Counted from the first letter of the stretch, positions 1-39,098 are shown. The stretch is DNA of 64,000 nucleotides from Minisyncoccota bacterium (GCA_017991375.1 JAGOQP010000004.1:6499-70498), one strand, 5' to 3'. Program-made: numbers and translations. The notes: generated by a model not told the origin, from the sequence alone.

Positions 1-308
1 GCGCAAACCACATCGAATGATTGGTCGCCAAATGGAAGATGGGTCGCGGTTCCTTCTTTGACCGTAAGTCCTTTTTGTTCGCAGAACGCCAGCGCGGTTG
101 GGCTAATATCAACTCCATACACACGGTGTCCTTTCTGATTGAAAAATTCCATTACCGCGCCACTGCCACACCCCACGTCGAGCACATCCAGACGATCTAA
201 CCTTTTGTTCGCGTGTCGCAACGCGTGTTTTAAAAAAAAGCGCTTTGCAACAAACCAAAAATGGCTTTGTTCTATACGATGCATATTCTCGTACTCCGCG
301 TATTGCAT
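1..308 (-). CDS. class I SAM-dependent methyltransferase (partial; runs off the window start)
   Basis: The minus frame was hand-translated from the ATG at 306-308: MQYAEYENMHRIEQ...LDRLDVLDVGCGSGAVMEFFNQKGHRVYGVDISPTALAFCEQKGL...FDVVC. It carries the SAM-binding motif I DVGCGSG and an acidic motif II, and has no stop before position 1. It is absent from the ORF track because it is truncated by the window edge. Confidence 0.55.
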   Translation of the reverse strand, partial: MQYAEYENMHRIEQSHFWFVAKRFFLKHALRHANKRLDRLDVLDVGCGSGAVMEFFNQKGHRVYGVDISPTALAFCEQKGLTVKEGTATHLPFGDQSFDVVC

Positions 309-310
309 AT

Positions 311-1027
311 TTATCCACGATACTTTCGGCGTATATAGTTAAGTTCTATTTCAAGTAATTCTTTTGCGCTCGTAATGATTGACTTAAGCACATGGACACG
401 CGAATCATCATCATGCGCCCACTCGACTCCCATTTGTTTAATGGGAATATGCTTTTTATGCGCGATAAAAAGAAGCTCTGTATCAAATCCCCACCGGTCA
501 ATGCGCGCCACTGGAAAAATTTTTTGCGCGGCCGGCCGAGAAAAACATTTAAACCCACAAGTAAAATCTTTTATTCCAGGAACAAGCATGTTGGAAAGTA
601 GTGTAAACCCCTGGCCAAGCATCGTTCTTACAGACGACTCATATTTTTGAATGTGTGATTCAGCAAGACGTCTGCTTCCAATAATAACCTGGTCGTCCTT
701 CTCCATAATAGAGCGCAGGTGATCAAACTCCTTAAGCGGCGTCGCCAAATCAATATCAAAAAACACAATCCAATCCCCTGTCGCCGCGGCAACACCTTGT
801 CTTACCGCGTATCCTTTTCCACGATTATGTTCATACGATACCACGCGTATGTTTCCTTTTTTCTGATAGGGCTGCAAAACATCAAGCGTTTTATCTGTTG
901 ATCCATCATTAACGAAGATAACCTCAGTATCCACTGATTGTTTGGCAAAAAAATCACAAATAGCGTCAATGCTTTTGGGGATGCGACGTTCTTCGTTATA
1001 TACGGGAATAACTATTGAGAATTTCAT
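311..1027 (-). CDS. GT2 glycosyltransferase, polyprenol/dolichol-phosphate mannose synthase (DPM1/Ppm1)-like
   Basis: 238 aa. The N-terminus FSIVIPVYNEE...VIFVNDGSTD..YEHNRGKGYA...FFDIDL is the classic GT-A fold of GT2 enzymes, with a DxD-like motif. The size and motifs match Dpm1-type polyprenyl-phosphate sugar synthases. Confidence 0.75.
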   Translation of the reverse strand: MKFSIVIPVYNEERRIPKSIDAICDFFAKQSVDTEVIFVNDGSTDKTLDVLQPYQKKGNIRVVSYEHNRGKGYAVRQGVAAATGDWIVFFDIDLATPLKEFDHLRSIMEKDDQVIIGSRRLAESHIQKYESSVRTMLGQGFTLLSNMLVPGIKDFTCGFKCFSRPAAQKIFPVARIDRWGFDTELLFIAHKKHIPIKQMGVEWAHDDDSRVHVLKSIITSAKELLEIELNYIRRKYRG

Positions 1028-1030
1028 ATA

Positions 1031-3154
1031 CTAACGCGCCAGCGCTTGTTCTATGCTTTTTATACGCGCGCGTACAACTTCAAGACGCCGCGCATCCCCT
1101 TTTTTGGCAATAAATGGCTCTAATTGTTTATACACATCAAGCGTTGCTCTGTCTGTTCCTCGAGTAAACGCGGGAAGAGTAAACGCTTTTTCCATAAGGT
1201 CAATCACTTGTTCAATGGGTGGATCTTGGCGGGTGAGGAGCACCGCCGCCAAAAAGAAATACGAATTACCCACGCGTGGATTTAACTCAATTGTTTCTTT
1301 AAGTAATTGCTCTGCCTTTTCATGTTCGCCTACAAGCGCCAACGTATATCCATAATAATATCGTGTATCCTGACGCTTTGGAGCAAGCGTGAGCGCCTTT
1401 TCGTAGTACACTAACGATTGGTCCATATATTTCATGTTATTAGTTGCCTGGCCCAACGCCGCGTAGGTTTGCGCGACCACGGTAAATGCTCTTGGGTTGT
1501 ATGGTTCTCGTTGAGCGAGCTCCTCGGTCGCCTGCAATACACGGATGAATATCTTATTAACCTCTTCGTTTTTCCCCACATACTGTTGAAGCGCGCCGAG
1601 CAAGCTTTGTCTAATATCTTGTTGCGCGTATGTATAGGGCTCAAGCATGCTATCCAAACTTTCTTTCATAACTTGAACGGTTGTCGAACCACTAAGCTTA
1701 TTAAGCGTTACCCGCATTTGAGCATACGCGACACAAGACATCACAAACACAATCGCGAAAAAAATTCCCACTGACGCAATAATAACAGTGAGCCCAACAC
1801 CGTTACGCGCGTGTTCGTGATGATCAATGGGCACCGCCTCTTTTTCTTTTTCGCTCTGGGCGTTCCACAATAGCGCGCCAAACGCGATGAACACAAAAAA
1901 TGGAATGTATGTTGAAACGGACTCAAAAACAAAAAGATTTTGGATAAAATATGCTACCCCAAAAAAAGTAATCGCCCCCGTTTCAATGCTGAGCGGACGT
2001 CGTAGTACCACCCACACCAGGAATACCCACAACGCAAGATATGCCACGAGCCCAAGCACGCCATTCATAACCGCAACGTCCATTAACTTATTATGCGCGC
2101 GATCAAACCAGTTTTGTTCAAACTCAAAATATTTCGGATTGTAATACTTATTATACGCAACTGAAAAATTTTCAGGACCCCAACCAGTAAGAAACTTTAC
2201 CGGCCCATTAGTAATGGGGTTGAGCGCCCGCGCGCTCACGCCAAGTGAAATTAAACGTGTCTGTAATGTGGGATCATTAAATGAAGCGGCCGCGAGACGA
2301 TCTATTCCTGGAATTTTTTTCCAAAACGCATCCGATTTAGTTAGAAGAAACACTACCGAGAGCATAATAACGAGTCCCACGATAACCAGTGCTATTTTTT
2401 TAAGATGCCATCTACCAAACAACATTCGATCACCCGATTTGACCGCCATAATAAGCGCCGCCACCGCAAGTCCAGCGCCCATACCAATCATCACACCACG
2501 CGTTTGAGAGACCAAAATACCCACCAGAGAGAGTGGGAGCATCGCCCATGCGACAAGGTGCCACTTACTCCCTCGCTCACCAATAACCATAAGCGCCGCG
2601 AATATAGTAAAGAGAAAAAGAATGGCAATATATATTGGGTTTCCAGTAAATGAACTTGGACGCGCCTGCCCGAGCGACAGCCACTGATACATTTGATTAA
2701 TAAAGAGAACGCCACCGGTAATCAGAGAGAGCTTGCAAAACATAAGCCAATCTTTTTTCGCAAACACCAGCATACCAAGCAAGAAAAATCCAAAAAAGAA
2801 TGACATCCCGAGCAATCCTTCCGCGCGCTCGATGTCTCCAAAAAAGGCACGGAATGTATTTACCGCGGTGAGCGTGCTTACAATATAGACCACAAAAAAC
2901 GCCGTTACTGAAATAACAATGGGATTTTTTTTGATTTGAGAAAAACGTTCGGCGATTTCTTTTCTGAACGCGTTGTTTGCCATCGCGTATCCCGCACACA
3001 AAAGCGTCGCAACCATAACCAATATTTTTATGGCCATGCTTTTGCCGGTAATATATGGGAAGAACACCCCCGAATCGACGATGAGTGGAACAAACGCAAG
3101 GAGCAATAAACTCCATACTATAGCTCGTTTCATATGGTATAGATAATAGAACAA
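1031..3154 (-). CDS. polytopic membrane protein with O-antigen-ligase (Wzy_C)-like core and C-terminal TPR repeats
   Basis: 707 aa with about 12 predicted TM helices and a large periplasmic-type loop, typical of WaaL/O-antigen ligase-like proteins. The C-terminal ~250 aa contain repeated TPR-like helices (AYYYGYTLALVGEHEKAEQLLKETIELNP...). This architecture is common in CPR glycosylation loci. Confidence 0.6.
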   Translation of the reverse strand: MFYYLYHMKRAIVWSLLLLAFVPLIVDSGVFFPYITGKSMAIKILVMVATLLCAGYAMANNAFRKEIAERFSQIKKNPIVISVTAFFVVYIVSTLTAVNTFRAFFGDIERAEGLLGMSFFFGFFLLGMLVFAKKDWLMFCKLSLITGGVLFINQMYQWLSLGQARPSSFTGNPIYIAILFLFTIFAALMVIGERGSKWHLVAWAMLPLSLVGILVSQTRGVMIGMGAGLAVAALIMAVKSGDRMLFGRWHLKKIALVIVGLVIMLSVVFLLTKSDAFWKKIPGIDRLAAASFNDPTLQTRLISLGVSARALNPITNGPVKFLTGWGPENFSVAYNKYYNPKYFEFEQNWFDRAHNKLMDVAVMNGVLGLVAYLALWVFLVWVVLRRPLSIETGAITFFGVAYFIQNLFVFESVSTYIPFFVFIAFGALLWNAQSEKEKEAVPIDHHEHARNGVGLTVIIASVGIFFAIVFVMSCVAYAQMRVTLNKLSGSTTVQVMKESLDSMLEPYTYAQQDIRQSLLGALQQYVGKNEEVNKIFIRVLQATEELAQREPYNPRAFTVVAQTYAALGQATNNMKYMDQSLVYYEKALTLAPKRQDTRYYYGYTLALVGEHEKAEQLLKETIELNPRVGNSYFFLAAVLLTRQDPPIEQVIDLMEKAFTLPAFTRGTDRATLDVYKQLEPFIAKKGDARRLEVVRARIKSIEQALAR

Positions 3155-3337
3155 AAATAAGAATTAAGAAAGAACGGGCACCACGGTATAAATCAACACA
3201 TACTCACTCGCCAAGATATTTTTAGATATCTATATTAAAATAGCAAATTGGTTTTTCTATTATTGACAAACCACCCCATCCAATGTAACGTATAATCGCG
3301 CACTTTGACACAAAGGAAAAAGGAAAGGAGAAGCGCG

Positions 3338-4033
3338 ATGATCAGCAAAGAAAGACATATCGCACTATCATGGAGGATTCCTCTGTTGGTTGGTATGCTC
3401 ACGGGCCTATTTCTTCTTGCACGGTACTTTGTTGCCGGATACATCCCAGGCCTTGCGCCGTATACCCTCAATCCCTTGGGAAGGGTACACAATCTGGCAA
3501 CCACAACACACATGCATGTTTCACCTCCCTCAAGTTGGTTTTATGTTCTTTCTCTCCCAGTGTTCACGTTTTTGTTCATCACATTTCTTCCAATAATAAG
3601 ACATGAGACAGGCCGAGAGAGACCTTGTCGAGGTGGGATCCGCGCTGGTTTGTGTGTGGCGACCATATCTTTTTTGCTCTCACTTGCGTACTGGACTACC
3701 TGCATTGGCTCTAGTGCGCAAATTACACCTCAAGATCTTTTTACTCTCTCTATCTTCTTTTTCACCTTGGCTGGTGTTTCTATACTATCTATCACGAATA
3801 TGATTGAATTGTTCACCGAATCTTCAGGAGAGATTTTTCGCTTTTTTTTCGGGTATGCTATCGGATCTGGGTTTATTGCCGATTTCGTCCTTGGGATTTC
3901 TTATGGGCTCGGGGTCACCGCGCTTATAAGTATCTTAGGGGCTGGAGTAATGTACGCGTCATGTGGAATCGGCCACGTTGTCAGACGTTGCCCTCCACGA
4001 ATATTCCAGTGGTTCCTTGCCACTGACAAGTAG
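3338..4033 (+). CDS. hypothetical polytopic membrane protein
   Basis: The track ORF is 3305..4033. The ATG at 3338 (MISKERHIALSW...) is preceded by aaggaaaggag, a good Shine-Dalgarno sequence, so the start was moved. Several hydrophobic segments; no recognisable family. Confidence 0.45.
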   Translation: MISKERHIALSWRIPLLVGMLTGLFLLARYFVAGYIPGLAPYTLNPLGRVHNLATTTHMHVSPPSSWFYVLSLPVFTFLFITFLPIIRHETGRERPCRGGIRAGLCVATISFLLSLAYWTTCIGSSAQITPQDLFTLSIFFFTLAGVSILSITNMIELFTESSGEIFRFFFGYAIGSGFIADFVLGISYGLGVTALISILGAGVMYASCGIGHVVRRCPPRIFQWFLATDK

Positions 4034-4053
4034 AGCTCACACCGCACACTTCC

Positions 4054-4085
4054 ACGACTCGTCCTCCGACGAGTCGTTTTTGTTT
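4054..4085 (+). terminator. Rho-independent terminator after the 3338..4033 gene
   Basis: acgactcgtc-ctcc-gacgagtcgt is a perfect 10-bp stem with a 4-nt loop, followed by ttttgttt. Confidence 0.6.
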
Positions 4086-4239
4086 ACGCGTATCCAACCC
4101 GCAGTCGATTAGGTAGCAAGACAAAGCTCGCTACCTGACCCAGTTAACAATACATGTTCAATGATTACTCAGCGCTACGAAATACTAATGAAGCAATACG
4201 AATATACTAAACACCGCTCACTAATCACTACCCACCACC

Positions 4240-5604
4240 CTATATCCCATACGTAATCGTCGCCAATTGAATAAATTGCCACACGACGATCAGAAAAAAG
4301 AAAACAACGACTATTGGATATTTTAAGAACCATTTCCCAAGCATCCACGCCAAAAGAATAACCAGGCACAATAAAGACGGAAAGTAGTGGTATAAAAATG
4401 CCACGCGAGCGATAGCAGTGTATGCCAAAAGATTCACCCAGTACCCAAACATCAAAAAGAGTACCGCCCACGCCTCGGTGGTCATTCTTTTTTCGCGCGT
4501 TGTCTTGATAACAAACCACAGCAGCGCCCAGAAAAACGCACCCACCCCCGCGTACCAAATAATTTCATTCCCATGAAGATACATCGTTGGTGTACGAGGT
4601 GTCCCAAAGGGTCCGAGCCAATAGTAGATAGGCTTTATGCCAAACGGCCATTGATACCATGCTGAACTTTCGGTATGAGGAGCGGTTAAATCACGATTAT
4701 AGGTAAACATTTTCTCATTGAGCTCAACGATTTTGTAGAGCATGTTCTGTGGAACAAAATCATTGGTGTGATAGTATTCATTTCCTACTAATGTCGCGCG
4801 AAACGGCCCCGTCATATATACATCACCTGTCCCACTCAGCGGAAGAAGCGCTAAATGAAGCCAGCACCAGAACATATAGACACCAACAGCACATAGTGCC
4901 AAAAGCGTCCCCAGTCCAAGCATTATTAGACGCTTTCCTTTTCTCGCGATAATATCAGCAAGAACTACCACCCCCGCGAGGCCGATAAAAAATACCCCTG
5001 TCATTTTGACGCTTGCAGCACATCCCACCAAAACACCCGCGACAACATAAAGGGCGATTTTTGACCATTTCCGCTCGCGCGTTCGCGCGAGCCATAATAT
5101 CCACAACCCCGCAATACCAAAAAGAAGTAAAAAAATATCCATGAGCGCCAGCCGCGATTGCGTAAGTAGCGCGTTATCAAAAATAACCAAAAGTCCAGAG
5201 AAAAACGCTACGCTCTTTTTTTTAAAAAGCTGATACGAAAACGCGTACATCGCTAGCACTAACAACACTCCCGCAACGCTCACCGCGGCACGATACGCTT
5301 TATAGGAATTATCCGTATACTGCTGACCAATTTTGGTAAAGGTAAACGATGTGTTTGGTTCGTGCCCTGCTATGAGCGCGGCACCAGCCATCACCAATTT
5401 GGCAAGAGGAGGATGTATATCAAAATAATACTTTCCATCGAAATAGCGATCGGTAAATTGAGCAAAGTGAAATTCGTCAAACACAATTTGATCAGGATAC
5501 CCAAACGCAAAAAAACGAGTAGCCACAGCGAGAAACAAAAGCACTATCAGCAATGTATAGTGATTAGAAAACAAAGAGGCACACCGCGTGCAAAATTTTT
5601 TCAT
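4240..5604 (-). CDS. PMT-family (GT39) protein O-mannosyltransferase / phospholipid-carrier-dependent glycosyltransferase
   Basis: The track ORF begins with a TTG at 5655; the first ATG (MKKFCTRC) is at 5602-5604. It has many TM helices, and the first periplasmic loop carries FDEFHF...DIHPPLAKL, the conserved DE and HPPL(G/A)K motifs of Pmt / ArnT-like GT-C enzymes. Confidence 0.7.
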   Translation of the reverse strand: MKKFCTRCASLFSNHYTLLIVLLFLAVATRFFAFGYPDQIVFDEFHFAQFTDRYFDGKYYFDIHPPLAKLVMAGAALIAGHEPNTSFTFTKIGQQYTDNSYKAYRAAVSVAGVLLVLAMYAFSYQLFKKKSVAFFSGLLVIFDNALLTQSRLALMDIFLLLFGIAGLWILWLARTRERKWSKIALYVVAGVLVGCAASVKMTGVFFIGLAGVVVLADIIARKGKRLIMLGLGTLLALCAVGVYMFWCWLHLALLPLSGTGDVYMTGPFRATLVGNEYYHTNDFVPQNMLYKIVELNEKMFTYNRDLTAPHTESSAWYQWPFGIKPIYYWLGPFGTPRTPTMYLHGNEIIWYAGVGAFFWALLWFVIKTTREKRMTTEAWAVLFLMFGYWVNLLAYTAIARVAFLYHYFPSLLCLVILLAWMLGKWFLKYPIVVVFFFLIVVWQFIQLATITYGI

Positions 5605-5648
5605 ACGAATATAGTATAGCAAACACGAGAGAAAATTATGGCGCAACA

Positions 5649-5683
5649 AAACCAAAACGACCCGTTAAGGGTCGTTTTGGTTT
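5649..5683. terminator. perfect hairpin (15-bp stem) between the two minus-strand genes
   Basis: aaaccaaaacgaccc-gttaa-gggtcgttttggttt. The stem ends in a U-rich run on both strands. It lies directly downstream of the stop of the 5733..7595 gene. Confidence 0.5.
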
Positions 5684-5732
5684 CGCGTGCCTCTTTGTGT
5701 TAAACAAGAAGCTCGCTGGCTTTAGCCATGCA

Positions 5733-7595
5733 TTATTGCATGTTCAAAGCTGATGTCTTCCACACGTTCTCGTCCATAGTCGTGTAGCCCAACGTGCGCG
5801 TTGCGCTCGCTGCCCAACCGACTTTCTGGAGCGTGAAGTGATACAAGCCATCACCAGTTGAGTTGCCCTTATTCATGACAAAGTCAACCGTGATTGTTCC
5901 TGTAACATCCTTCGGCAGTTTGTAGATAGACGTGTCAGATTGCACTTGGAAGTTTGAATCCAACGAGACCAGCTTGCTGGTTGTGGTTGAGTTCGTGTCT
6001 TCTGTGTTTGACTTGTAGATCTTCAAAACTGTTGAAGTTGAAAGATTCAAGAAGTACAAATCGCTTCCACCTGCCTTAACGGTGAAGGTGAACTTACCCG
6101 TGAGTGAGCTGGTTGAAACACCAGATACACCTGGGAAGAATGTCAACGAGGTTGTCGGAGCTGATGCAAACACTGGAGCAACCTTGAAGACGCTCAAGCT
6201 GTCGCTCGTTGCCGAGCCAGTAGCTGTTACTGAGTCGCCCATGCTGTTCTCCGCTGTCACACCTGCTGTCGCTCCAGTTCCTTCAACGTTGATCTTAACG
6301 GTTCCCGTGTATGCGGTTGTTGTCGCGCCACGGAAGTCTCCCTTAATGGTCAACGTCTTTGTTGAATCCTTGTCGACGTATACCTCAACATTGCTGATTG
6401 ATGCTAATCCCGCTGCACTCACTGATCCTGATCCAATGAGGGTTGACCCATCATAGACGTAGATCGTGTTAAGAGCCGGCGATGAACCGCTTGCCCATGT
6501 GGTTGAAGTCACGTTGAATGCAGTGACTTTAATGCGATCATTTTCTGAGCGCAAATCAAATGCCAACAAGGTCGCGGCGCTTACATCTCCCTGGTTGTCA
6601 GAGAGGATGTTTCCGGTCTTTGGTGAGTTGACGTTCTTTGAGATTGTCAACGCAGCTGAGTTTGCCAAGGTCTTCTTAGCAGTAAACGTGCGGCTGAATT
6701 CCGTGGTCGGGCCGTATTGGCTCAAACCAAGTCCGTCAAGTCCGCGAACGCCATTTTGAGGAACCGTCAATGTGTACGTAGTGTTCACATATGACGAATC
6801 AATCGTGGTGTTAACGTCTGCTGCAATGTACAAAACGCGGGTCTCATCCTTCTTTACTAAGAAGTTGAAGCCTGAAATCGTTATGTAGTACGTTGTTCCT
6901 TCTTTAACAATAGTTGAAGAATTTAACGCAACTTCTGCCAACGTTGCCGAACCATCGGTTACGTAGAGGCGATTCAAGATCTTGTTGTAGATCGTGGTTG
7001 CAGTTCCAAGGCTCAACTTCACGCGCTCGATGCTTACATCGCCGAGTGTTGCTTTTGCCTTGATACCCATCACGTTGATCTTTGAATTCCCTTCGTACAC
7101 GTTTGTTCCAGCGGCCGGAGATGGGTTGACTTCAACAGTCAACGAACCTTCTGACTTTGTTGTTGGAACAACAGTTGTTGTTGGGGTCACGGTCGTGGTT
7201 GGGGTGACCGACGTAGCCAAGTAGGCACGCGTCTTTGGTCCAAAGTATCCCGATGCCGGCGTGATTCCAACTGATGCCTGCCATGCTGCCAAGGCTGTTT
7301 TGGTCAAAGGACCAAAGAATCCAGTCGGAGCAGTAATAGCGAGGAATCCTTTTGCAATCAACATTGATTGCAATGATGACACATCGTCTCCCTTTGAACC
7401 CACGGTGAGGTCGCGAGTATATGAGGTTGACGCTGTTGATGTTTGCCCAAGCTGTGCTTGCAAGGTTTGGATCTGAGCCAAGAGGGCCGCGATCTGAGCC
7501 TGCAAATCAGCTGTGCTTTGTGCGTTAACGTTAACTGAAGGGACGAGCACTATTGCCGCCAATGCAACTAACGCAACTTTCTTTAATGAACTCAT
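5733..7595 (-). CDS. secreted Thr/Ser-rich surface protein with N-terminal coiled coil and peptidoglycan-binding (PG_binding_1-like) repeats
   Basis: The start was moved to the internal Met MSSLKKVALVALAAIVLVPSVNVNAQ, a clear signal peptide. This is followed by LQAQIAALLAQIQTLQAQL (coiled coil) and two GYFGP.T..AL..WQ repeats of the PG-binding kind. The next ~450 aa are Thr/Ser/Val-rich beta-type sequence (TPTTTVTPTTTVVPTT...). Confidence 0.6.
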   Translation of the reverse strand: MSSLKKVALVALAAIVLVPSVNVNAQSTADLQAQIAALLAQIQTLQAQLGQTSTASTSYTRDLTVGSKGDDVSSLQSMLIAKGFLAITAPTGFFGPLTKTALAAWQASVGITPASGYFGPKTRAYLATSVTPTTTVTPTTTVVPTTKSEGSLTVEVNPSPAAGTNVYEGNSKINVMGIKAKATLGDVSIERVKLSLGTATTIYNKILNRLYVTDGSATLAEVALNSSTIVKEGTTYYITISGFNFLVKKDETRVLYIAADVNTTIDSSYVNTTYTLTVPQNGVRGLDGLGLSQYGPTTEFSRTFTAKKTLANSAALTISKNVNSPKTGNILSDNQGDVSAATLLAFDLRSENDRIKVTAFNVTSTTWASGSSPALNTIYVYDGSTLIGSGSVSAAGLASISNVEVYVDKDSTKTLTIKGDFRGATTTAYTGTVKINVEGTGATAGVTAENSMGDSVTATGSATSDSLSVFKVAPVFASAPTTSLTFFPGVSGVSTSSLTGKFTFTVKAGGSDLYFLNLSTSTVLKIYKSNTEDTNSTTTSKLVSLDSNFQVQSDTSIYKLPKDVTGTITVDFVMNKGNSTGDGLYHFTLQKVGWAASATRTLGYTTMDENVWKTSALNMQ

Positions 7596-7760
7596 GTTTC
7601 TAAATTTTGTATAGGATTTTCTTGTTTTAGTAATCGTTTCGTTTTTCCTTTTGTGGAAAAACAGTTCAGATAGCACACTCCTCTGCTACCGACCCGCTGC
7701 TTCATCGGTGAGGACGAATCAGCAAGCTAACAGTTAATACGGAATGAGCTCCTGTTTCAT

Positions 7761-7960
7761 TACCGGTCTCTTTGTGGAGACCAGTCTCAAAAATATGGCC
7801 ATATTTTTGAGACTGGTTCCCGCAAAAACAAAAAGCTCACCGGCAAGGTGAGGCAACACAATACAAGGACGGAAAGCCGCGCAAAAAACGCCGTTTCCGT
7901 TGATCAGTGATCGCTTGTATTCTGCCTCACGGTTAGAAGCGATATACTCGCCTAACCACA
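7761..7960. promoter_or_regulatory. highly structured intergenic region (multiple hairpins including a 36-bp perfect palindrome at 7781..7816)
   Basis: ccagtctcaaaaatatgg|ccatatttttgagactgg is a perfect palindrome. Adjacent hairpins are ggtctc-tttgtg-gagacc, ctcacc-ggcaa-ggtgag, acggaaa..tttccgt and ggttag..ctaacc. The region is the ~380-nt stretch upstream of the 5733..7595 gene on the minus strand. Confidence 0.4.
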
Positions 7961-8134
7961 GAACGAAAGCTCTATTTCTACGATGCGCCCATTATACACG
8001 AGTGGGGTATTTTTGTCAATAATCCGACTTTGTGTACACCGGGAAGCACCTCTCTTGGCTTTTAATGTTCAAGCGGCGCCGAGCGCCGTTCGAGAGTATA
8101 AACGAAACACATCCATATCCGTTACGGGTGTGTG

Positions 8135-8974
8135 TTACGCCGTCTTTTGTTTCTTAATACGCAAGAATGATTTAGGGCCACCCGTCCCTACTCGTTCAAT
8201 AATCTTCTTATCAACTAATCGTTGGATATCATACCTCAATGTCCGGTCACTAATCCCTGGAAGTATGTCTTGGATGTCTTTTATGTGGCATAATGTGCGC
8301 TTTTTTAACAAATCAACAATCATCTCCTGTCTTTCAGAAAAATATGCCGCTTTTGGTATTTCATCTACACTTTTGGCCATACTTATTGCCGGACTTTTTT
8401 GTGTCTCTGTTATTTTGGCAGTGTTTATGCCGTCTTTTTCAATATTCTCATTGCCGGACTTTTTATCTTCTTTTATATATGTTGCCGGACTTTTTTGCGA
8501 TGCGTCTATATCAATAGATTTTACGCCACTATTTATCATTTTCTCATTGCCGGACTTTTGTGCTTTTGTTTTCACTTCTTCATCTTTCTCTTCGGATATG
8601 TGCGCAATCATTTTCGCGAACTCCGAAAATATCATAGGTGGTTTTGAAAACATTTCTTCTATAAGAATTCTTTCTTTGCTCCCCTTAGCAACTGTTTCCG
8701 CTTTCTCATACACCATATCCGAGAGGGTTTTTTTAAGCCCGTTTATTTCCCTGAGCAAAACCCCCGCATTGACACTACTTATTTCCCCCACCTCTTGGGT
8801 CAAGCGAACAGCATATTCAAGTTCAGCTAAGGTATCTACCGTTTTTGACCCCATATACGAAAGTGCGACATCTTCAAGATACTTTTGGAGCTGTGGACGA
8901 GAAATATGGGCCGCCACTCGGAACACGGCCCACACCACCTCAAACGATCGTTGTTTAAAAAAATCTGAGGGCAT
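8135..8974 (-). CDS. DNA-binding protein with C-terminal DeoR-type winged-helix HTH and internal short peptide repeats
   Basis: The C-terminus ERQEMIVDLLKKRTLCHIKDIQDILPGISDRTLRYDIQRLVDKKIIERVG is a typical DeoR/wHTH domain. The middle region has repeated KSGNE / QKSPA peptides, encoded by a 4x DNA repeat (ttgccggacttt). The overlapping plus-strand ORF 7983..8981 is low-complexity antisense. Confidence 0.5.
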   Translation of the reverse strand: MPSDFFKQRSFEVVWAVFRVAAHISRPQLQKYLEDVALSYMGSKTVDTLAELEYAVRLTQEVGEISSVNAGVLLREINGLKKTLSDMVYEKAETVAKGSKERILIEEMFSKPPMIFSEFAKMIAHISEEKDEEVKTKAQKSGNEKMINSGVKSIDIDASQKSPATYIKEDKKSGNENIEKDGINTAKITETQKSPAISMAKSVDEIPKAAYFSERQEMIVDLLKKRTLCHIKDIQDILPGISDRTLRYDIQRLVDKKIIERVGTGGPKSFLRIKKQKTA

Positions 8975-9060
8975 AAGATGATCATTAATCGTTAACTATT
9001 AACAACAGGACTGATACTAAAGTACTCTTTGAACGATAACCTCATGCTGATAAACCAGTA

Positions 9061-9541
9061 AAACAAATACTTTTAGGAAGCGGGAAGGTGGGCAAACCAC
9101 CTTCCCATATTTGAACAGAAGCTTCTTACTCTTTTCTTCCTCGAGCGCTTTACAGACCACGATGTATTCAAGATCGTCCGTAGCCTCCGGCTCGTGAAGA
9201 AGTATTGAAAGAGCTTTGGCCTAGTTCGCTGTCGGCTATGACTTGGGTTGGTTTGTTGGTGGCACTTTTGCCTTTTCCTTGTCTGACGTGCCAGCTTCCG
9301 CCTGCGAAATTTCTGGCATATGAAGTCGCATGCCGGTCACGACATCGAGCCCGCCGCTCAAGCTGCACAGACAGGTAAAGCGACCGTGGTCGTCTTGTGG
9401 GAACATTTCTGCCCCACACCGAGGGCATGTCGGCCCGCGCCCATGACGACGCATGTACTGATCAGTTTCATCCCAGTACCCCATGCGACACCTCCTTTGT
9501 TTTGTTATTAGTTTTGAAGCTTCCTAAAAGTACTTGTTTTA
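9061..9541. mobile_element. IR-bounded GC-rich insertion (MITE/IS-remnant-like)
   Basis: The left end aaaacaaatacttttaggaagc (9061..9082) and the right end gcttcctaaaagtacttgtttt (9520..9541) are inverted repeats with 21/22 matches. The interior is about 55% GC against a ~40% background. A strong hairpin, gggaaggtgg-gcaaa-ccaccttccc, sits just inside the left IR. Confidence 0.4.
9236..9484 (-). CDS. small zinc-ribbon-like protein carried on the IR-bounded GC-rich element
   Basis: 82 aa: MGYWDETDQYMRRHGRGPTCPRCGAEMFPQDDHGRFTCLCS..., with a CxxC ... CxC arrangement. A strong SD (aaggaggt) sits 5 nt upstream of the ATG on the minus strand. GC-rich codon usage is unlike the neighbouring genes. 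Confidence 0.45.
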   Translation of the reverse strand: MGYWDETDQYMRRHGRGPTCPRCGAEMFPQDDHGRFTCLCSLSGGLDVVTGMRLHMPEISQAEAGTSDKEKAKVPPTNQPKS

Positions 9542-9840
9542 AAGAGCAATGCATCAAATAACTACCCCACTTGCCACATACACACCCTTCCGTAGTCCAC
9601 CACGGATGGACGTAGAGGGTCCACCCCGGGCCCGTCGAAGAACTACACGCTATCTGCCATAAGCTTATTAGACACGCGCTACATTACCCCTACCATAGAG
9701 CCGATAAAAATAGAAGTCAAGGCATAGCGTATAAGTAACATAAAAGAGCGCCATTTCATCGTTGTGTTATTGTAAAAAATCAATACTCTTTTTTCTTATC
9801 CTATTCTCTCTCCTCTCTATACACACCCTTCATCACCCAT

Positions 9841-9878
9841 TTGACCCCTTTTTTCACGATCGTGAAAAAAGGGGTCAA
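9841..9878. repeat. 38-bp perfect palindrome, copy 1 (TTGACCCCTTTTTTCACGATCGTGAAAAAAGGGGTCAA)
   Basis: Exact palindrome. It has the 5' flank tcatcacccat, which is shared with copy 3. It lies about 50 nt upstream of a TGnTATACT extended -10. Confidence 0.9.
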
Positions 9879-9918
9879 TCATACACTTCTATAAGTTATC
9901 AACACTCATATACATTTT

Positions 9919-10040
9919 TGTGATATACTTTTTAGTATCATGAGAACATTGGCAGAAAATGGTGCGCGCGCCAACACGGTGTGTCAGACATACGTGACCC
10001 CGTAGCATGTTAACGTTCCGCCCCGATGGGCGGTTTTTGT
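9919..10040 (+). ncRNA. candidate small transcript / leader: extended -10 promoter (tgaTATACT, 9921..9929) to intrinsic terminator (10018..10040)
   Basis: A TGnTATACT extended -10 element is followed about 100 nt later by ccgccc-cgat-gggcgg plus tttttgtt. The transcript would contain a 22-codon ORF (MRTLAENGARANTVCQTYVTP*) with no SD. It ends 50 nt before the 10092 gene. Confidence 0.3.
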
Positions 10041-10704: not shown

Positions 10705-13700
10705 ATGCACTCTATTAATTCAAAAAGAGCGTTTTTTGGAGCCCTGGTACTCACTGTGTTATCGGGGCTTTTTTGTTCTCATCCAGCACTCGCCTATCAA
10801 CCACAGACACACCGCTTTATTACCGAGCAAGGCATATCCCTCTATAACAAAAGCCACCCCGATGCTCCTATTTCAGAAAGCGCGATATCGTTTATGACCG
10901 ACGGAGCGCGACGAGAAGACGATCCCCTGCGATGGTTAAACCATTTCTACGATCCGATAAGCAAGAAGGGGCTGAGTCACAACGGAGCGATTGACCCCCT
11001 TTTTCAATTTGGTACATGGGAATCATCAAAGCTGTGGGCACAAGACGAACAGAACCAAAGTCGTATCGTATACTCACCCCTTATCGCGACGATTTTATCT
11101 AGCATCCAACAAAAGCAAGTTGAAAAATTTTTTCCCACATCAATATTTACCTGGGACCGCGCCATTACATATTGGGTAGAAGGAAACATTGAAATGGCTA
11201 TGGTAACGCTCGGTCACGTACTTCATCTTACGCAAGACGCCTCTGTCCCCGACCATACCAGAAACGATCCACATGTTTCCGGAAGTCCTTATGAAGATTT
11301 TGTTGGAAAATCAAATGTATTAAAAACGAATAGCAGTATCATTTCTTTGGCAAAAGAACAGCACAAACCGCTTTCATCCCTTGAGAACGCGTTTGATCAG
11401 ATAGCTCTTTATTCAAATAATAATTTCTACAGTAAAGATACCATTGGCATACAAAGTGGATATGAAGATCCACAGCCAGATTTTTTTCAAAAGGAAGGAA
11501 CGAAATACTTCGGTATTAAAAATGGCATAACAAAAGATTACAAACTATACAAAAGTCTTTTGGGGAAAAGCTATTTCTTAACAAATAATTCATTAATTAC
11601 ATTAGCAGATGAAGATGTCCTCTCCGATTATTGGTCTCTTCTTGGTCCAAAATCAATAGCGAATACAGCTGGGGTAATTGAGTTATTTTTTAAAGAAGCT
11701 CGAGCGGCACAGCGTAATGCCTCTATTAGCCACGAAAAATCATTTTTTGCTCGAATTGTAGACGCCGCAAAAGGAGCTATTATCGACTTATTCTCATCGG
11801 CAACAAATCAAGACGAGGAAATTATCACCATTCCAATCTCAAACACCTCGCCAACTCCGAGCGTAAGCCACCAAGCCACGCCAACACCTTCCAAAACCGT
11901 TGCGCCGACAAAATCGCCAACTCCTTCGCAACCACTAATCACAACATTTCCCACTCGCGCGCGTGTACTGAGAATTATTGATGGAGATACTATTGTACTT
12001 GAAAATAATATAACCGTGCGATATCTGGGAATTGATGCTCCCGAACTGGAGGATAGCACAACAAAGAGTGGGTGTTTGGCGCAAGAATCAAAACAGCGCA
12101 ATACAACACTTGTTAACGGAAAAACAATTTCTCTTGAGTACAGCGGCGAGAAAACCGATTCATTCGGACGATTACTTGCTTATGTCTCTGTCGACAACGC
12201 GCTGGTAAATCAACAACTAGTCCGCGAGGGGTTGGCGTATGCGTATAACTTCAACCACCCTCATCCAAAGGAAATGGTTTTCTCGTCTGCTCAAGAAGCG
12301 GCGCGAAAAGATAAGATTGGGTTATGGGGATCTTCATGCGCACCCACGCCGACGCCATCTCCCTCATCAACACCAAAAATAACTCAAAAGACAACAAAAA
12401 CATCCGCTCCGTCGTGCTCGCTTATTTCCTCTCAAACCCCGTCACATAATCAACTTATTATAAACGAAGTCGCATGGATGGGATCTCCCACAAGCGCCAA
12501 TGACGAATGGATTGAGTTAAAAAACATAGGATCTTTTCCTATTACATTATCGGGATGGTCGCTTGCCACTCAAGATGGGAATCTCCGTATTGATCTTTCA
12601 GAATCAAAGCGACTTGTTATACCTCCTGACCAGTTTGTATTACTCGAACGAACAAATGACGCAAGCGTTCCTACTATCACTGCCGATATTATTTATAGTG
12701 GGGCTCTTTCAAATTCCAACGAGCGTCTTATGCTCTTTGATCCCTCATGCGCTCTTATAGACGACGCGCTCGCGGGATCATCATGGCCAGCTGGGGATAA
12801 CGCGACAAAGCGAACAATGGAACGCGCCCAATCTGGATTTGGATGGCACACATCGCAAGAAAGCGGCGGGACGCCAGGGAGAGAAAATTCATATCAATCT
12901 TTTGGCTCGGGCGGTGGGGGAGGGTCATCGGGGACATCGCCTTCTCCATCGTCATCGCCTACCCCGTCACCATCAGCGTCGCCCTCTCCGTCTCCGACAC
13001 CAACAACGCTACCAAACGTGCGCATCAATGAAATCATGTATAACCCAGCAGGGGCTGATGATGATCACGAATGGATAGAGATATATAACGAAGGATCAAT
13101 TGCTTTTGATGTAACGTCTTTACGTCTTATTGAAAACGAAACGGCGCATATAACTTCCGCAATCGGGCAAACCACTATCGCTCCATTAGAATACGCTATT
13201 ATCGCCGACGACGTAGATACCTTTTTGACTGATCACCCTGGATTTACTGCTCCCGTATTTGATAGTTCTTTTTCTCTGAGCAACGAGGGAGAGTCCCTTT
13301 CTCTTTCATATGACAATCAAATAGTACACAGCGTACCCTATCAAGCTACGTGGGGAGCAAATGGCGATACATCATCGCTTCAATTTATGAATCCGGGATG
13401 GTACGCCTACCAACCGACGCCCGGAAAAGAAAACACGCCCTCACAAGAAATCACATCAGACCCAATATCCGCGTCGACACATATACTAATCAGCGAAATA
13501 CAGGTCGCGGGGGCATCTCCTGATGATGAATTTATTGAACTATACAACCCCACCGATTCATTCATATCACTCCGTGATTATTCCATACAATACATCAGTG
13601 GACGCGCGGAGACACTTTCTGATCCTTATAAGAAAAATTTTCCCGATGATGATCTTATTGCCCCTCATGGGTTTTATTTGCTAGCAAACGGGGGTGGGTT

Positions 13701-15363
13701 ATTTGCTCAAAAAGCCGACATGACATGGAATAGCTTTTCTCTTTCGGGAGAATCAAAGGGAGGAATTATCGTTCTTGTTGCTACCACCACGCCCATCACC
13801 ACACTGGCCACCTATCCCATTATTGACCAAATCGCCTACGGAACACCAATTCTTCAGCCATCAGCAGCGCCACTCCCCGATCCGAGCATGAGCATTGAAC
13901 GAAACGCCCTTATTTCAACAAAATGCTTCATCGCACAAGGCGCCTACCTTTTTAGCGGAAATGGATGCGACACAGACGCAACAAGTGATTTCATAGTCAA
14001 TGAAAATCCTTTTCCACAAGGGTCATCCAATTTAGCAGAACCCAGATCGGGACCAGGATCCCCTATATCATTTGAAGCGTTATATGATCCGAGTACATTT
14101 GTGCTCTCACTCTCATGGATGCCTGCTGACGAAAATAGCTATTATGTTCCAGAAAAATCCATAACCACGAATCCATCTGATGGTTTTATTTCTCTAGGAA
14201 CTACCACTGACTTAACAAGTCAAGCACGAATGATAGACATTGGCTTAGATTACACCATACAAGTTACCGCATATGATGCCGATGGATTTCCTTCTGCACC
14301 GGCGACAACAACTATTTCCATGCCGGGAATGCTTACTCATCTTTATTTTTATGAAACATCTCCGGGATCGGAAGCATATGTTCTTGAGCCAATATTCAAA
14401 ACCTATCCATTCGTTATTGATCCAAACATAAAAGAAGATATCCCCCACTGGAGAGCACTCGCATTTTTTCTTGATCAGCCAACTATATCAGTTATGCCGC
14501 AATATCCGTACGGTAGTATTGAAGGCATAAGTGGCGGGATGCAAATAACCCACCCCACTTGTATAAATCCTGATGGGACCATAGTTACTCAAGCAGTGAC
14601 TTTTCCCGACACGGCTGGTATGTGTGGAAGTGGTGGAGGAATTTTCAACTCAACGTATCCATACGCATTACTTGAAGATAATCGCGTTCGCCTTCCAGTG
14701 GCGCCAGACACTGCCGCTCAAATTACTCCAACGTCTACCGTTATTGTCGCGTTCTTCACCTCGGGAAAATCAACTAACGGCGACGGACGTTATCCTGAAT
14801 TCTTACGTGTAGTGGTCGATCGATTTCCCGTCTCTTTAGGAGAGCCCCCAGAACCACTACCACCAACACCCCCTGTTATTACCACCACTGCCGATAATTT
14901 TGATCCAATCCGTGAGAAATTAGTTGTAACATGGGATGATTCGTCCGATCCCGACTCACTTGATCGTTATATCGCTTATGAATTTCGCGGCGGCGCCTCT
15001 ACTCAACCCATAACCGATTACCCGTGGTTGCCGGCCGTACGCAGTATTGATGGATCAACGTATGTAGAACCAAGCATAGAGGCGCGCCAAGGAGAAACAT
15101 ATGTTATTCATATGCGCGCTGTTGATGAAGACGGGCATTATTCTGATGTTTCCACTATACCTATTTCTATTCCAGCTACAGAGATGCTATTAACGGCGCC
15201 GCTGTTGTTTTCTGCGCCTCCGTTACTGGATGACAAAAATGTGAGTAGCGCATCCAGCACTGACGAATCTATTGTCCAACCAACAACCCCATCTGAGACG
15301 CTACCAGAAAATCCAGCAACCACGCCGGCGCAAAACTCAACAGAAACAGAGGACAATGTATGA
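10705..15363 (+). CDS. giant secreted multidomain nuclease: Zn-dependent PLC/S1-P1-like N-domain + staphylococcal-nuclease (SNase) domain + three lamin-tail domains
   Basis: 1552 aa with a signal peptide. The N-domain has WLNHFYDP...LGHVLHLTQDASVPDHT, matching the zinc ligands of PLC / S1-P1 nucleases. The SNase domain is VLRIIDGDTIVL...VRYLGIDAPE...GRLLAYV...NQQLVREGLAYAY. Three LTDs follow (LIINEVAWMG..DEWIELKN; VRINEIMYNPAG..HEWIEIYN; ILISEIQVAG..DEFIELYN). The domains are separated by PSPSPTPT linkers. Confidence 0.8.
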   Translation: MHSINSKRAFFGALVLTVLSGLFCSHPALAYQPQTHRFITEQGISLYNKSHPDAPISESAISFMTDGARREDDPLRWLNHFYDPISKKGLSHNGAIDPLFQFGTWESSKLWAQDEQNQSRIVYSPLIATILSSIQQKQVEKFFPTSIFTWDRAITYWVEGNIEMAMVTLGHVLHLTQDASVPDHTRNDPHVSGSPYEDFVGKSNVLKTNSSIISLAKEQHKPLSSLENAFDQIALYSNNNFYSKDTIGIQSGYEDPQPDFFQKEGTKYFGIKNGITKDYKLYKSLLGKSYFLTNNSLITLADEDVLSDYWSLLGPKSIANTAGVIELFFKEARAAQRNASISHEKSFFARIVDAAKGAIIDLFSSATNQDEEIITIPISNTSPTPSVSHQATPTPSKTVAPTKSPTPSQPLITTFPTRARVLRIIDGDTIVLENNITVRYLGIDAPELEDSTTKSGCLAQESKQRNTTLVNGKTISLEYSGEKTDSFGRLLAYVSVDNALVNQQLVREGLAYAYNFNHPHPKEMVFSSAQEAARKDKIGLWGSSCAPTPTPSPSSTPKITQKTTKTSAPSCSLISSQTPSHNQLIINEVAWMGSPTSANDEWIELKNIGSFPITLSGWSLATQDGNLRIDLSESKRLVIPPDQFVLLERTNDASVPTITADIIYSGALSNSNERLMLFDPSCALIDDALAGSSWPAGDNATKRTMERAQSGFGWHTSQESGGTPGRENSYQSFGSGGGGGSSGTSPSPSSSPTPSPSASPSPSPTPTTLPNVRINEIMYNPAGADDDHEWIEIYNEGSIAFDVTSLRLIENETAHITSAIGQTTIAPLEYAIIADDVDTFLTDHPGFTAPVFDSSFSLSNEGESLSLSYDNQIVHSVPYQATWGANGDTSSLQFMNPGWYAYQPTPGKENTPSQEITSDPISASTHILISEIQVAGASPDDEFIELYNPTDSFISLRDYSIQYISGRAETLSDPYKKNFPDDDLIAPHGFYLLANGGGLFAQKADMTWNSFSLSGESKGGIIVLVATTTPITTLATYPIIDQIAYGTPILQPSAAPLPDPSMSIERNALISTKCFIAQGAYLFSGNGCDTDATSDFIVNENPFPQGSSNLAEPRSGPGSPISFEALYDPSTFVLSLSWMPADENSYYVPEKSITTNPSDGFISLGTTTDLTSQARMIDIGLDYTIQVTAYDADGFPSAPATTTISMPGMLTHLYFYETSPGSEAYVLEPIFKTYPFVIDPNIKEDIPHWRALAFFLDQPTISVMPQYPYGSIEGISGGMQITHPTCINPDGTIVTQAVTFPDTAGMCGSGGGIFNSTYPYALLEDNRVRLPVAPDTAAQITPTSTVIVAFFTSGKSTNGDGRYPEFLRVVVDRFPVSLGEPPEPLPPTPPVITTTADNFDPIREKLVVTWDDSSDPDSLDRYIAYEFRGGASTQPITDYPWLPAVRSIDGSTYVEPSIEARQGETYVIHMRAVDEDGHYSDVSTIPISIPATEMLLTAPLLFSAPPLLDDKNVSSASSTDESIVQPTTPSETLPENPATTPAQNSTETEDNV

Positions 15364-15527: not shown

Positions 15528-16091
15528 ATGATTTACGCACATTCCGCTTGTTATAAATATAAACACAAATACTCGGCATCAATAGCACTTCTTAAATTAC
15601 TTATCGGCTGTGGGCATGTTTCGCTTGATGAATTTTTAAAAAACTCCAACAAAAATTTAACTAAAGACCAATTGTTAAAAAACCGCAAAGCGTATCACAA
15701 AATGATACATAAGTTACACCAAGAGGGGCTCGTCGAAAAAATAGACGACAGAAGAAAATCGCCAGTGAAAGTGGTGTCTGGCAAATTATCTACCCTTAAG
15801 GAAAAGCTACTCAAAAAAGACTTGGCCCAACATACATTGAGAGATGGGGGTCAAAAAAGCATGTTTCCAATAATTGTTGCGTTTGATATACCAGAAAAAT
15901 ATAGAACAAAAAGAGATTTCCTTAGACGATTACTCCAGTCATTAGGGTATCAGATGATACAAAAGAGTGTGTGGATCGGCTATTATAAACTGTCAAAAGA
16001 TTTCATGGACGAGTTAAGAGAAATTAGAATTCTTCCTTATGTTGACGTATTTTCAATAAACCGATCAGGGACTATTAGAAAGTACCAATAA
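15528..16091 (+). CDS. solo winged-helix + Cas2/VapD-like domain protein (putative regulator or nuclease; no cas neighbourhood)
   Basis: 187 aa. The N-terminal half looks like a wHTH (LDEFLKNSNKNLTKDQLLKNRKAYHKMIHKLHQEGLVEKID). The C-terminal half, MFPIIVAFDIPEKYRTKRDFLRRLLQSLGYQMIQKSVWIGYY, follows the Cas2 beta1-alpha1-beta2 pattern (compare YDITDD..RNRVAEFLKKMGKRVQYSVFEC). The first codon in the track may not be the true start. Confidence 0.5.
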   Translation: MIYAHSACYKYKHKYSASIALLKLLIGCGHVSLDEFLKNSNKNLTKDQLLKNRKAYHKMIHKLHQEGLVEKIDDRRKSPVKVVSGKLSTLKEKLLKKDLAQHTLRDGGQKSMFPIIVAFDIPEKYRTKRDFLRRLLQSLGYQMIQKSVWIGYYKLSKDFMDELREIRILPYVDVFSINRSGTIRKYQ

Positions 16092-24934: not shown

Positions 24935-24994
24935 AACAAAGGACCTACGATTAACAACAATAAATCCCATTTACTGTAAACCGCCCGGCATCTT

Positions 24995-25025: not shown

Positions 25026-25048
25026 ATCGAGAACATGGGGCTTTAGGG

Positions 25049-39092: not shown

Positions 39093-39098
39093 ATAGTA

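Follow-up and report, generated by a model that had tools for sequence, protein, structure and literature searches.

The left end of a 64,000-nucleotide stretch of DNA from a Minisyncoccota bacterium (GCA_017991375.1 JAGOQP010000004.1:6499-70498; the whole stretch is called the window below) carries genes of predicted glycosylation enzymes next to the gene of a secreted, peptidoglycan (PG)-binding surface protein. An interpretation made from the DNA without database searches (the sequence-only reading) described a protein O-mannosylation module whose substrate would be this adjacent surface protein. Our analysis partly confirms what was observed and partly supports how it was interpreted. The five open reading frames (ORFs) in question, for an S-adenosylmethionine (SAM)-dependent methyltransferase, a family 2 glycosyltransferase (GT2), a membrane protein with Wzy_C and tetratricopeptide repeat (TPR) domains, a protein O-mannosyltransferase (PMT) of family GT39 and the secreted protein, lie where the sequence-only reading had placed them, all on the minus strand, and their predicted domains were confirmed by Pfam (Table 1). 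The enzymology is thus retained, whereas the pairing of the PMT with its substrate is lost, since the conserved partner of the surface protein is the Wzy_C/TPR enzyme. The window has a G+C content of ~44%, and its genes are best matched by sequences from Patescibacteria, Paceibacterota and Parcubacteria.

The genes of the cluster are tightly spaced, with gaps of 3 nt and 2 nt and one overlap of 4 nt. The methyltransferase gene starts only 2 nt past the GT2 stop and is therefore probably co-transcribed with the GT2 gene. It runs past the left end of the window, beyond which the DNA was taken from L001, the same contig in the public assembly. There the complete gene (L001 7502-8239) encodes 245 aa, and the cluster extends for at least 6 kb more, through the rest of the methyltransferase gene and genes for a 497-aa GT-C protein, a 258-aa protein with a single transmembrane (TM) helix, a Wzx-type flippase, a second methyltransferase and a GT2-GtrA fusion, which overlap or stand a few bases apart. 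The label MptA_B_family, which precomputed data attach to the 497-aa GT-C protein, was not reproduced by our own Pfam scan. Within the window, the glycosylation genes do not form the single block that had been described, as an insertion of ~910 bp (interval 3155-4239) parts the PMT stop from the Wzy_C start; it is absent from L002, a relative at 65% identity. The inserted ORF, which is closed by a terminator-like hairpin, has no Pfam or NCBIfam match and no homologue in the other 168 fetched loci (L002-L169).

Table 1. Features at the left end of the window and the basis of their assignment
Feature	Position	Strand	Basis
SAM-dependent methyltransferase, N-terminal 102 codons	1..308	-	Methyltransf_11, E 2.8e-15
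238-aa GT2	311..1027	-	Glycos_transf_2 PF00535, E 7.6e-32
700-aa Wzy_C/TPR membrane protein	1031..3133	-	Pfam Wzy_C and TPR
ORFan of 212-242 aa, ~5 TM helices	3305/3395..4033	+	ORF call, TM prediction
Terminator-like hairpin, 10-bp stem followed by a T-run	4054..4077	+	hairpin found
454-aa PMT (GT39) homologue without MIR domain	4240..5604	-	PMT and PMT_4TMC
620-aa secreted surface protein	5733..7595	-	signal peptide and PG_binding_1, E 6e-10
Linker codons TSVTPTTTVTPTTTVVPTT (aa 128-146)	7158..7214	-	low-complexity stretch
Long, highly structured 5' leader of the surface-protein gene	7596..7991	-	folding energy against shuffles
Near-invariant 56-nt leader element	7680..7735, core 7690-7720	-	comparison of 11 distinct loci
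Perfect sigma-70-type promoter TTGACA-17-TATAAT	7991..8019	-	also kept in L002
279-aa protein with C-terminal DeoR-type winged helix-turn-helix (wHTH)	8135..8974	-	Pfam HTH_DeoR, E 4.5e-6

The conserved part of the locus was identified in 80 metagenomic loci (L090-L169) whose Wzy_C/TPR proteins are 29-50% identical to that of the window. Upstream DNA was sufficient in 59 of these loci, and in 39 of them a homologue of the surface protein is encoded at most three genes upstream on the same strand, mostly adjoining. When the loci were dereplicated at 90% identity, an orthologue of the surface protein remained upstream in 29 of 46, of which 27 match the C-terminal part. Several loci that lack a match to the surface protein still show a large signal-peptide protein at position -1. 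A PMT, by contrast, was found near Wzy_C/TPR in 1 of the 80 loci (L102). The wHTH gene is co-located in L002, L004, L011 and at least 15 of the Wzy_C loci. Genes downstream of Wzy_C vary freely between loci whereas the adjacency of the PG-binding protein and Wzy_C persists. The 128 genes sampled elsewhere from the three positions downstream of Wzy_C serve mostly in variable glycan synthesis, and their most frequent families are SDR sugar-nucleotide enzymes (21), GT2 (10), methyltransferases (9), a second Wzy_C (7), Wzx (5), asparagine-synthase homologues (4) and nucleotidyl transferases (4). Synteny seen from both sides, from Wzy_C and from the PMT (see below), thus defines the conserved unit as a wHTH protein, a PG-anchored surface protein and a WaaL-like/TPR enzyme. 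To judge from these gene orders, the PMT and its GT2 are lineage-specific additions to the three-gene unit, of which no description was found in the literature.

The surface protein is composed of a signal peptide, a short coiled coil, a PG_binding_1 domain, a linker of Ser, Thr and Pro (S/T/P) and a C-terminal region of ~470 aa, which is free of Cys, rich in Thr, Ser, Ala and Val, and matches no Pfam family. The C-terminal 474 residues define a family of their own, which counts 497 representative clusters (350 at E<=1e-10) and whose members mostly have 600-680 aa and share an N-terminal module of ~150 residues. Internal repeats were not found by BLASTP self-comparison. Of the earlier description of a PG-binding protein with a signal peptide and an extremely Thr/Ser-rich C-terminal ~450 aa, the signal peptide and the PG_binding_1 domain stand, but the degree of enrichment does not. 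Ser and Thr make up 27% of the protein, about twice the local average (9-15% in the other proteins of the window), and 12-40% of the individual 50-aa blocks, and the sole low-complexity stretch is the TP-rich linker TSVTPTTTVTPTTTVVPTT of 19 residues. Its sequence makes this linker the most likely candidate for an O-glycosylation acceptor. Orthologues also have, at a fixed position after PG_binding_1 and before the C-terminal part, a low-complexity linker of S/T/P(G), and the linker sequences are unrelated. In 51 of 116 full-length family members, at least 11 of 16 linker residues are Ser, Thr or Pro. TP-rich segments are the acceptor type favoured by the mycobacterial PMT (PMC12331936). The proposal that the protein is an acceptor of the Pmt type is therefore upheld as far as the S/T/P-rich linker at a conserved position is concerned, but synteny does not support a PMT as its specific neighbour or the protein as that enzyme's specific substrate.

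A second exported protein of the window, of 1552 aa (10705-15363, plus strand), contains a staphylococcal-nuclease domain, three lamin-tail domains (LTD) and three long PT/PS-rich linkers with up to 15 of 16 residues Ser, Thr or Pro. By its sequence it is another good candidate for an O-glycosylation acceptor and possibly functions in the scavenging of extracellular DNA.

The Wzy_C/TPR protein had been described as O-antigen-ligase-like with TPR repeats, and this holds. Wzy_C (PF04932) scores 38.7 bits against a cutoff of 31.7 bits (E 1e-9), the TPR domain was found, and the AlphaFold2 (AF2) model (pLDDT 91) has the O-antigen ligase WaaL (7TPG, E 3.6e-5, TMt 0.61) as its best fold match in the PDB. 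The relation to WaaL was revealed by the fold search alone; by sequence, the membrane part yielded only chance matches in the PDB, and a profile search with the full-length protein was swamped by TPR proteins. The protein has 12 TM helices and, beyond these, a 13th at aa 446-481, behind which a TPR domain of ~215 aa forms the C-terminus (aa ~486-700). WaaL has 12 TM helices with both termini in the cytoplasm. With a 13th helix added to this topology, the TPR domain is predicted to be extracellular. Residues R212, R279, R293, D344, R345 and H347 are invariant across 40 homologues, and R279, R293, D344, R345 and H347 are located in the large loop after helix 9. E. coli WaaL shares its functional residues R215, R288 and H338 with PglL (PMC3643930). 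These are spaced by 73 and 50 residues, and R212, R293 and H347, spaced by 81 and 54 residues, resemble them, the mapping being by spacing only. From its fold, the protein is predicted to be a glycan ligase or an O-oligosaccharyltransferase (O-OTase).

The PMT was correctly recognised as a GT39 enzyme with a DE/HPPLAK loop, as the Pfam scores and the invariance of the motifs demonstrate. The PMT domain (PF02366) attains 149.7 bits against a cutoff of 22.7 bits (E 1.3e-43), and the C-terminal four-TM module PMT_4TMC (PF16192), which aligns to residues 538-674 of yeast Pmt4, 89.1 bits against 32.4 bits (E 3.4e-25). Sequence matches in the PDB are to fungal Pmt4, Pmt1 and Pmt2 only, at 1.6e-38 and weaker; the Pmt4 alignment spans both halves of the protein and skips the MIR domain. 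D43, E44, H64, P65, P66, L67 and K69, which form the DE and HPPLAK motifs, are invariant among 26 sequences and align with 'vfdevhf' and 'hppfak' of Pmt4. Also invariant in the 26 homologues are D156 in loop 2 and R400 and F403 of the R-x2-F motif in loop 5; D156 and R400 align with a conserved D and R of Pmt4. Essential residues of the Mycobacterium tuberculosis PMT are D74, D176, R441 and Y444 (PMC12331936), to which D43, D156, R400 and F403 would correspond if the numbering is matched through yeast Pmt4. An identity as ArnT or another GT-C enzyme, which the sequence-only reading had itself considered, was checked. ArnT was rejected: NF009784 gave 23.8 bits against a cutoff of 567 bits, PMT_2 was not matched and the PDB matches are fungal PMTs. 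The profiles that had been named for a check, PF02366, PF00535 and PF04932, all matched in their respective proteins. The sequence provides a solid basis for regarding the protein as a genuine PMT/GT39-type enzyme, with the activity predicted.

Compared with a single fungal Pmt4 sequence, the PMT scores 136 bits, and with the family model of actinobacterial Pmt 24.8 bits. In the latter case (equivalog NF058602, cutoff 800 bits) only model positions 94-188 were matched, so that the PMT of the window falls outside the actinobacterial group at the level of orthologues. The sequences contain hints that the MIR-less Patescibacterial PMTs are nearer to the cores of eukaryotic PMTs than to the characterised bacterial Pmt. 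Patescibacterial homologues already bear the database label 'phospholipid carrier-dependent glycosyltransferase', and intact PMTs are widespread in Patescibacteria, where one peptide pattern matched 288 species-representative genomes.

Sequence and model predict that the GT2 is a polyprenyl-phosphate hexose synthase similar to ALG5, DPM1 and GtrB. Its DxD motif (D91-x-D93) is invariant in homologues, a profile search of the PDB is led by GtrB sll0501, the dolichyl-phosphate-mannose synthase (DPMS) 5MLZ and ArnC, and the AF2 model (pLDDT 89.5) has DPMS 5MLZ as its best Foldseek match (E 8e-16, TM 0.75). Prediction of TM helices found none, as for a soluble enzyme. The GT2 had been designated a polyprenyl-phosphate-mannose synthase; the polyprenyl-phosphate-hexose synthase is upheld and mannose is unproven. 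The best match among solved structures is a mannose enzyme, and relatives at 55-65% identity are named dolichyl-phosphate beta-glucosyltransferase by the JGI and NCBI pipelines. The phosphomannomutase that was thought to supply mannose-1-phosphate was dropped as support for the pathway because its family is ambiguous and its gene is unlinked. The protein encoded at 19636-20994 scores best with archaeal-type GlmM (273 bits, below cutoff) and then with PMM/PGM (232 bits), and its gene is 12 kb from the cluster with unrelated genes between.

The surroundings of the PMT were compared in 86 other PMT loci, 80 from species-representative genomes and 6 from assemblies. The PMT gene is mostly solitary or stands in the order MetRS-TatD-PMT-SecD-SecF (about 8-10 of the 86 loci), and its position beside SecDF fits glycosylation coupled to Sec export. 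A longer order, AI-2E / MetRS / TatD / PMT / SecD / SecF / AlaRS, is found in one Paceibacteria clade (L005, L006, L007, L010, L031) and in part in L012-L015, L022, L024 and L028. The window retains AI-2E/MetRS/TatD at 24173-28041, where PMT and SecDF are missing; hence the PMT has apparently been relocated into the surface-protein locus. An orthologue of the GT2 is encoded directly downstream of the PMT in seven other loci, across several PMT clades, and this recurrent adjacency supports a pair of donor synthase and transferase.

A PG-binding protein is encoded near the PMT in only four other distinct loci (L002/L003, L004, L011, L084), and Wzy_C/TPR is present in every locus in which the two are linked. 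S/T/P-rich secreted proteins account for 3 of 314 genes within two positions of the PMT versus 17 of 884 genes farther away (1.0% vs 1.9%, p = 0.3). A substrate next door as a general rule for PMTs was therefore rejected, there being no enrichment among the 1198 neighbouring genes of the 86 loci. With so few linked loci, and with the PG-binding protein accompanying Wzy_C in 29 of 46 loci instead, the claim that this protein is the PMT's specific neighbour and substrate is not supported. In a neighbour-joining tree calculated without support values, a single clade, beside the TatD/SecDF clade, unites the PMT of the window with those of L002, L004, L011 and L102, and the association in L084 is separate. 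The tree indicates that a PMT joined the module of Wzy_C and PG-binding protein at least twice, in the clade of the window and in L084. The gene order varies while the neighbours stay together: it is PG-PMT-Wzy in the window and PG-Wzy-PMT in L011. L084 encodes between Wzy_C and PMT (7781-9922, plus strand) an additional 713-aa multi-TM protein, whose sole family match is a faint one to DUF6798.

The 390-nt leader of the surface-protein gene has a minimum free energy of -150.6 kcal/mol (z = -8.8 against shuffles) and includes a perfect 17-bp hairpin at about 7768-7829. Long structured leaders have been reported for S-layer genes, which the leader of the surface-protein gene resembles in this respect. 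Its 56-nt element is almost unchanged in 11 distinct loci whereas the adjoining proteins share just 30-65% identity; besides the window, it is present in L002 (1882-1937), L004 (3673-3728), L011 (1668-1723), L095, L100, L107, L111, L119, L136 and L165. As RNA the element may form a 12-bp hairpin with a CUCACC loop, and as DNA it is an imperfect inverted repeat, GCTGATTCGTC-N6-GATGAAGCAGC, which could serve as the operator of the adjacent wHTH protein. Covariation in the leader hairpin was not significant, since 73 of 500 shuffles attained the observed score. A covariance model of the element revealed no copies outside the training sequences, and Rfam gave only sub-threshold noise from miRNA hairpins.

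With belief and doubt in about equal measure, we favour the view that this region forms the beginning of a locus for a cell-surface glycoprotein of a Patescibacterium (Paceibacterota-like), in which the Wzy_C/TPR enzyme glycosylates the surface protein en bloc and the PMT provides a second route. The core would consist of the wHTH gene, followed by the strongly promoted gene of the PG-anchored surface protein and then by the gene of the WaaL/PglL-like Wzy_C enzyme. The lineage-variable downstream cluster, represented here by the GT2, the methyltransferases, the MptA/B-like GT-C, the Wzx flippase and the GT2-GtrA fusion, would build a glycan linked to undecaprenyl-pyrophosphate (Und-PP). Once the glycan has been flipped across the membrane, the Wzy_C/TPR enzyme would move it en bloc onto the adjacent surface protein, which the TPR domain would hold as the acceptor. 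The PMT, fed with polyprenyl-phosphate-hexose by the 238-aa GT2, would attach single hexoses to Ser/Thr of exported proteins in stretches that are unstructured and S/T/P-rich, among them the TSVTPTTTVTPTTTVVPTT linker and the linkers of the 1552-aa nuclease/LTD protein. The analysis shows which genes are present, their folds, the conservation of catalytic residues and the synteny statistics; donors, acceptors and the sugar are inferred.

O-glycosylation en bloc by the Wzy_C/TPR enzyme is favoured because the arrangement of the genes matches that of PglL-pilin pairs and of Gram-positive S-layer loci. Of 31 pglL genes, 21 adjoin the gene of their pilin substrate (PMC3643930). WsfB, an O-OTase for S-layer proteins, unites Wzy_C and a TPR motif in one protein, and methyltransferase and asparagine-synthase genes are part of the clusters for S-layer glycosylation (PMC2943079). 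A C-terminal TPR motif has also been reported for PglL (PMC3643930, PMC2943079). In common with PglL/TfpO(PilO) of Neisseria, Acinetobacter and Pseudomonas, the locus has a membrane enzyme with Wzy_C and the WaaL fold, clusters for Und-PP-linked glycans nearby, and a ligase gene directly downstream of, and co-oriented with, the gene of a secreted protein with a low-complexity Ser/Thr/Pro region, an arrangement that is typical, not strictly defining. It differs in that the candidate substrate is not a pilin but a PG_binding_1-anchored protein rich in Thr, Ser, Ala and Val, that the ligase has a 13th TM helix, a large TPR domain and no match to PglL_A, that a wHTH gene belongs to the conserved unit, and that the host is a monoderm-like Patescibacterium. 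The slg loci of Geobacillus stearothermophilus and Paenibacillus alvei (WsaB/WsfB) resemble the locus in the Gram-positive-type envelope, the surface-protein gene near a glycan cluster, the Wzy_C O-OTase (with TPR in WsfB) and the genes for methyltransferases and asparagine-synthase homologues, the latter in L002 and in the downstream gene sample. Unlike the S-layer proteins, the 620-aa protein is anchored by PG_binding_1 and not by SLH; its likeness to an S-layer protein is limited to this anchor, the strong promoter, the long structured leader, the Cys-free composition rich in Thr, Ser, Ala and Val, and the conserved family. The locus has a Wzx flippase where slg clusters use a Wzm/Wzt ABC transporter, and it contains in addition the PMT and the MptA/B-like GT-C.

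Several points weigh against a locus for en bloc glycosylation of the surface protein with a PMT as second route. The Wzy_C domain alone does not separate ligases, O-OTases and polymerases. PglL_A (PF15864) was not matched in the Wzy_C/TPR protein by Pfam at E<=0.01; an O-OTase function is nevertheless compatible with its absence, since PilO/TfpO is likewise without the PglL_A motif (PMC3643930). The predicted location of the TPR domain outside the cell derives from the helix count in the AF2 model and the topology of WaaL. The available sequence shows no initiating phosphoglycosyltransferase. Cues to the sugar conflict, the relatives of the GT2 pointing to glucose and the precedent of the PMT family to mannose. 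Finally, the linkage of PMT, Wzy_C and PG-binding protein in the clade of the window may be inherited order that is not selected.

The main rival interpretation assumes that the Wzy_C enzyme serves a non-protein acceptor: it would ligate a glycopolymer to PG or a membrane lipid, with the PG-binding protein as a scaffold and the PMT as an independent general O-glycosyltransferase. WaaL, the best structural match, indeed works on a lipid acceptor, the absence of PglL_A agrees with this assumption, the PG_binding_1 domain of the neighbouring protein could place the ligase at the wall, and the downstream genes resemble clusters for O-antigen or secondary wall polymers. Patescibacteria, however, are not known to have a lipopolysaccharide core that could act as the acceptor, and the S/T/P linker occupies a fixed position in the neighbouring protein. 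Furthermore, O-OTases often adjoin their protein substrate (PMC3643930), and TPR domains bind proteins, one being present in the S-layer O-OTase WsfB (PMC2943079). We consider a non-protein acceptor unlikely. An absence of any functional coupling, with the order merely inherited in a small, gene-dense genome and Wzy_C acting as a Wzy-type polymerase of a surface polysaccharide, is very improbable. The single PMT clade formed by the window, L002, L004, L102 and L011 could reflect one inherited event, and Wzy_C includes polymerases, as the second Wzy_C among the downstream genes sampled elsewhere recalls. Yet the adjacency of PG-binding protein and Wzy_C is kept among enzymes as divergent as those of the 80 loci while the downstream genes change, the neighbours remain together in spite of the different orders in the window and L011, and the PMT association in L084 is independent.

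The remaining alternative is the original one, in which a dedicated Ppm1/Pmt-type O-mannosylation module modifies the adjacent PG-binding protein and the Wzy_C/TPR protein and the methyltransferase are accessory. It can draw on a convincing GT39 enzyme with intact catalytic residues, a GT2 of the polyprenyl-phosphate-hexose synthase type that lies in the cluster and repeatedly beside the PMT elsewhere, a linker of the TP-rich kind that the mycobacterial PMT favours (PMC12331936), and the closeness of PMT and PG-binding genes, which is seen in the window and in L002, L004, L011 and L084 and arose twice independently. Synteny speaks against it: in the 86 other loci the PMT is mostly alone or in the MetRS-TatD-PMT-SecDF order, its S/T/P-rich secreted neighbours are not enriched, a single one of the 80 loci of the Wzy_C/PG-binding type has a PMT, and all loci that link PMT and PG-binding protein also contain Wzy_C/TPR. 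The naming of the GT2 relatives as glucose synthases and the ambiguous, unlinked PMM likewise argue against mannosylation, so that we judge such a dedicated module to be improbable.

The comparison with Ppm1 and Pmt of Actinobacteria (M. tuberculosis Rv1002c, S. coelicolor, C. glutamicum) is still instructive. Shared are a MIR-less PMT with the DE motif, the loop-2 Asp and an R-x2-aromatic motif, a soluble GT2 for polyprenyl-phosphate-hexose, Pro/Thr-rich acceptor regions and a link to Sec export, seen here as the PMT-SecDF adjacency in relatives. Differences are the poor score with the actinobacterial Pmt model and the much better alignment of fungal Pmt4, the ALG5-like (glucose) annotation of the GT2 relatives in place of Ppm1/DPM1, and the host, which is outside Actinomycetota, the only bacterial phylum in which PMT-type protein O-mannosylation has been demonstrated so far (PMC12331936, 2025). 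No paper was found that links Patescibacteria, or the candidate phyla radiation (CPR), to protein O-mannosylation. A further parallel exists to the three-component systems of GtrA, GtrB and a GT-C enzyme, as the profile of the GT2 best matches GtrB and the cluster contains a GT2-GtrA fusion and two further GT-C proteins (the PMT and the MptA/B-like protein). Unlike in these systems, the 238-aa GT2 ends without TM helices such as GtrB has at its C-terminus, and the acceptor of a PMT-type GT-C is expected to be a protein and not O-antigen or teichoic acid.

Other parts of the window contain features of separate interest. In a 187-aa protein (15528-16091, plus strand), the Cas2-like central domain of PaaX proteins was recognised (E 7e-15), and CRISPR_Cas2 was matched weakly. 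A run of ~12 co-oriented genes, mostly without a Pfam family, occupies 37896-50154 on the minus strand. Among its products are a TraG-like P-loop ATPase (41209-42963), a protein of 786 aa that has a signal peptide and a tail rich in TP (45234-47594), and another protein with PG_binding_1 (48985-50154). The cluster could serve type IV secretion, a conjugation-like process or a surface appendage. At 60000-64000, the G+C content falls from ~0.44 to 0.34-0.38 over the DNA immediately upstream of dnaA and over dnaA itself (61315-62688, plus strand), which is followed by a 372-aa ORF (62828-63946); this is probably the region of the replication origin. Scans of the whole window for tRNAs and Rfam families yielded no matches.

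Patescibacteria (CPR) are ultra-small, live attached to host cells and have a surface chemistry that is scarcely known. Only tentatively, and with doubt prevailing, do we propose that the undescribed, widespread Patescibacterial unit of wHTH protein, surface protein and 13-TM WaaL-TPR enzyme is a dedicated pair of O-OTase and substrate for the main surface glycoprotein, to which certain lineages add a route with PMT and an ALG5-like GT2. If this is true, the locus would provide the first PMT-type protein glycosylation outside Actinomycetota, possibly an O-glucosylation instead of an O-mannosylation. The widespread Patescibacterial PMTs widen the question of why bacteria use a eukaryote-like pathway, and these small MIR-less enzymes are practical material for structural work. 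The organism is uncultured, but the pair of surface protein and ligase can be tested by heterologous co-expression. As a conserved pair, it is a concrete candidate for the main Patescibacterial surface glycoprotein, and because the downstream glycan genes vary between lineages it could matter for how the cells attach to their hosts and are recognised by phages, and for variation of a serotype-like kind.

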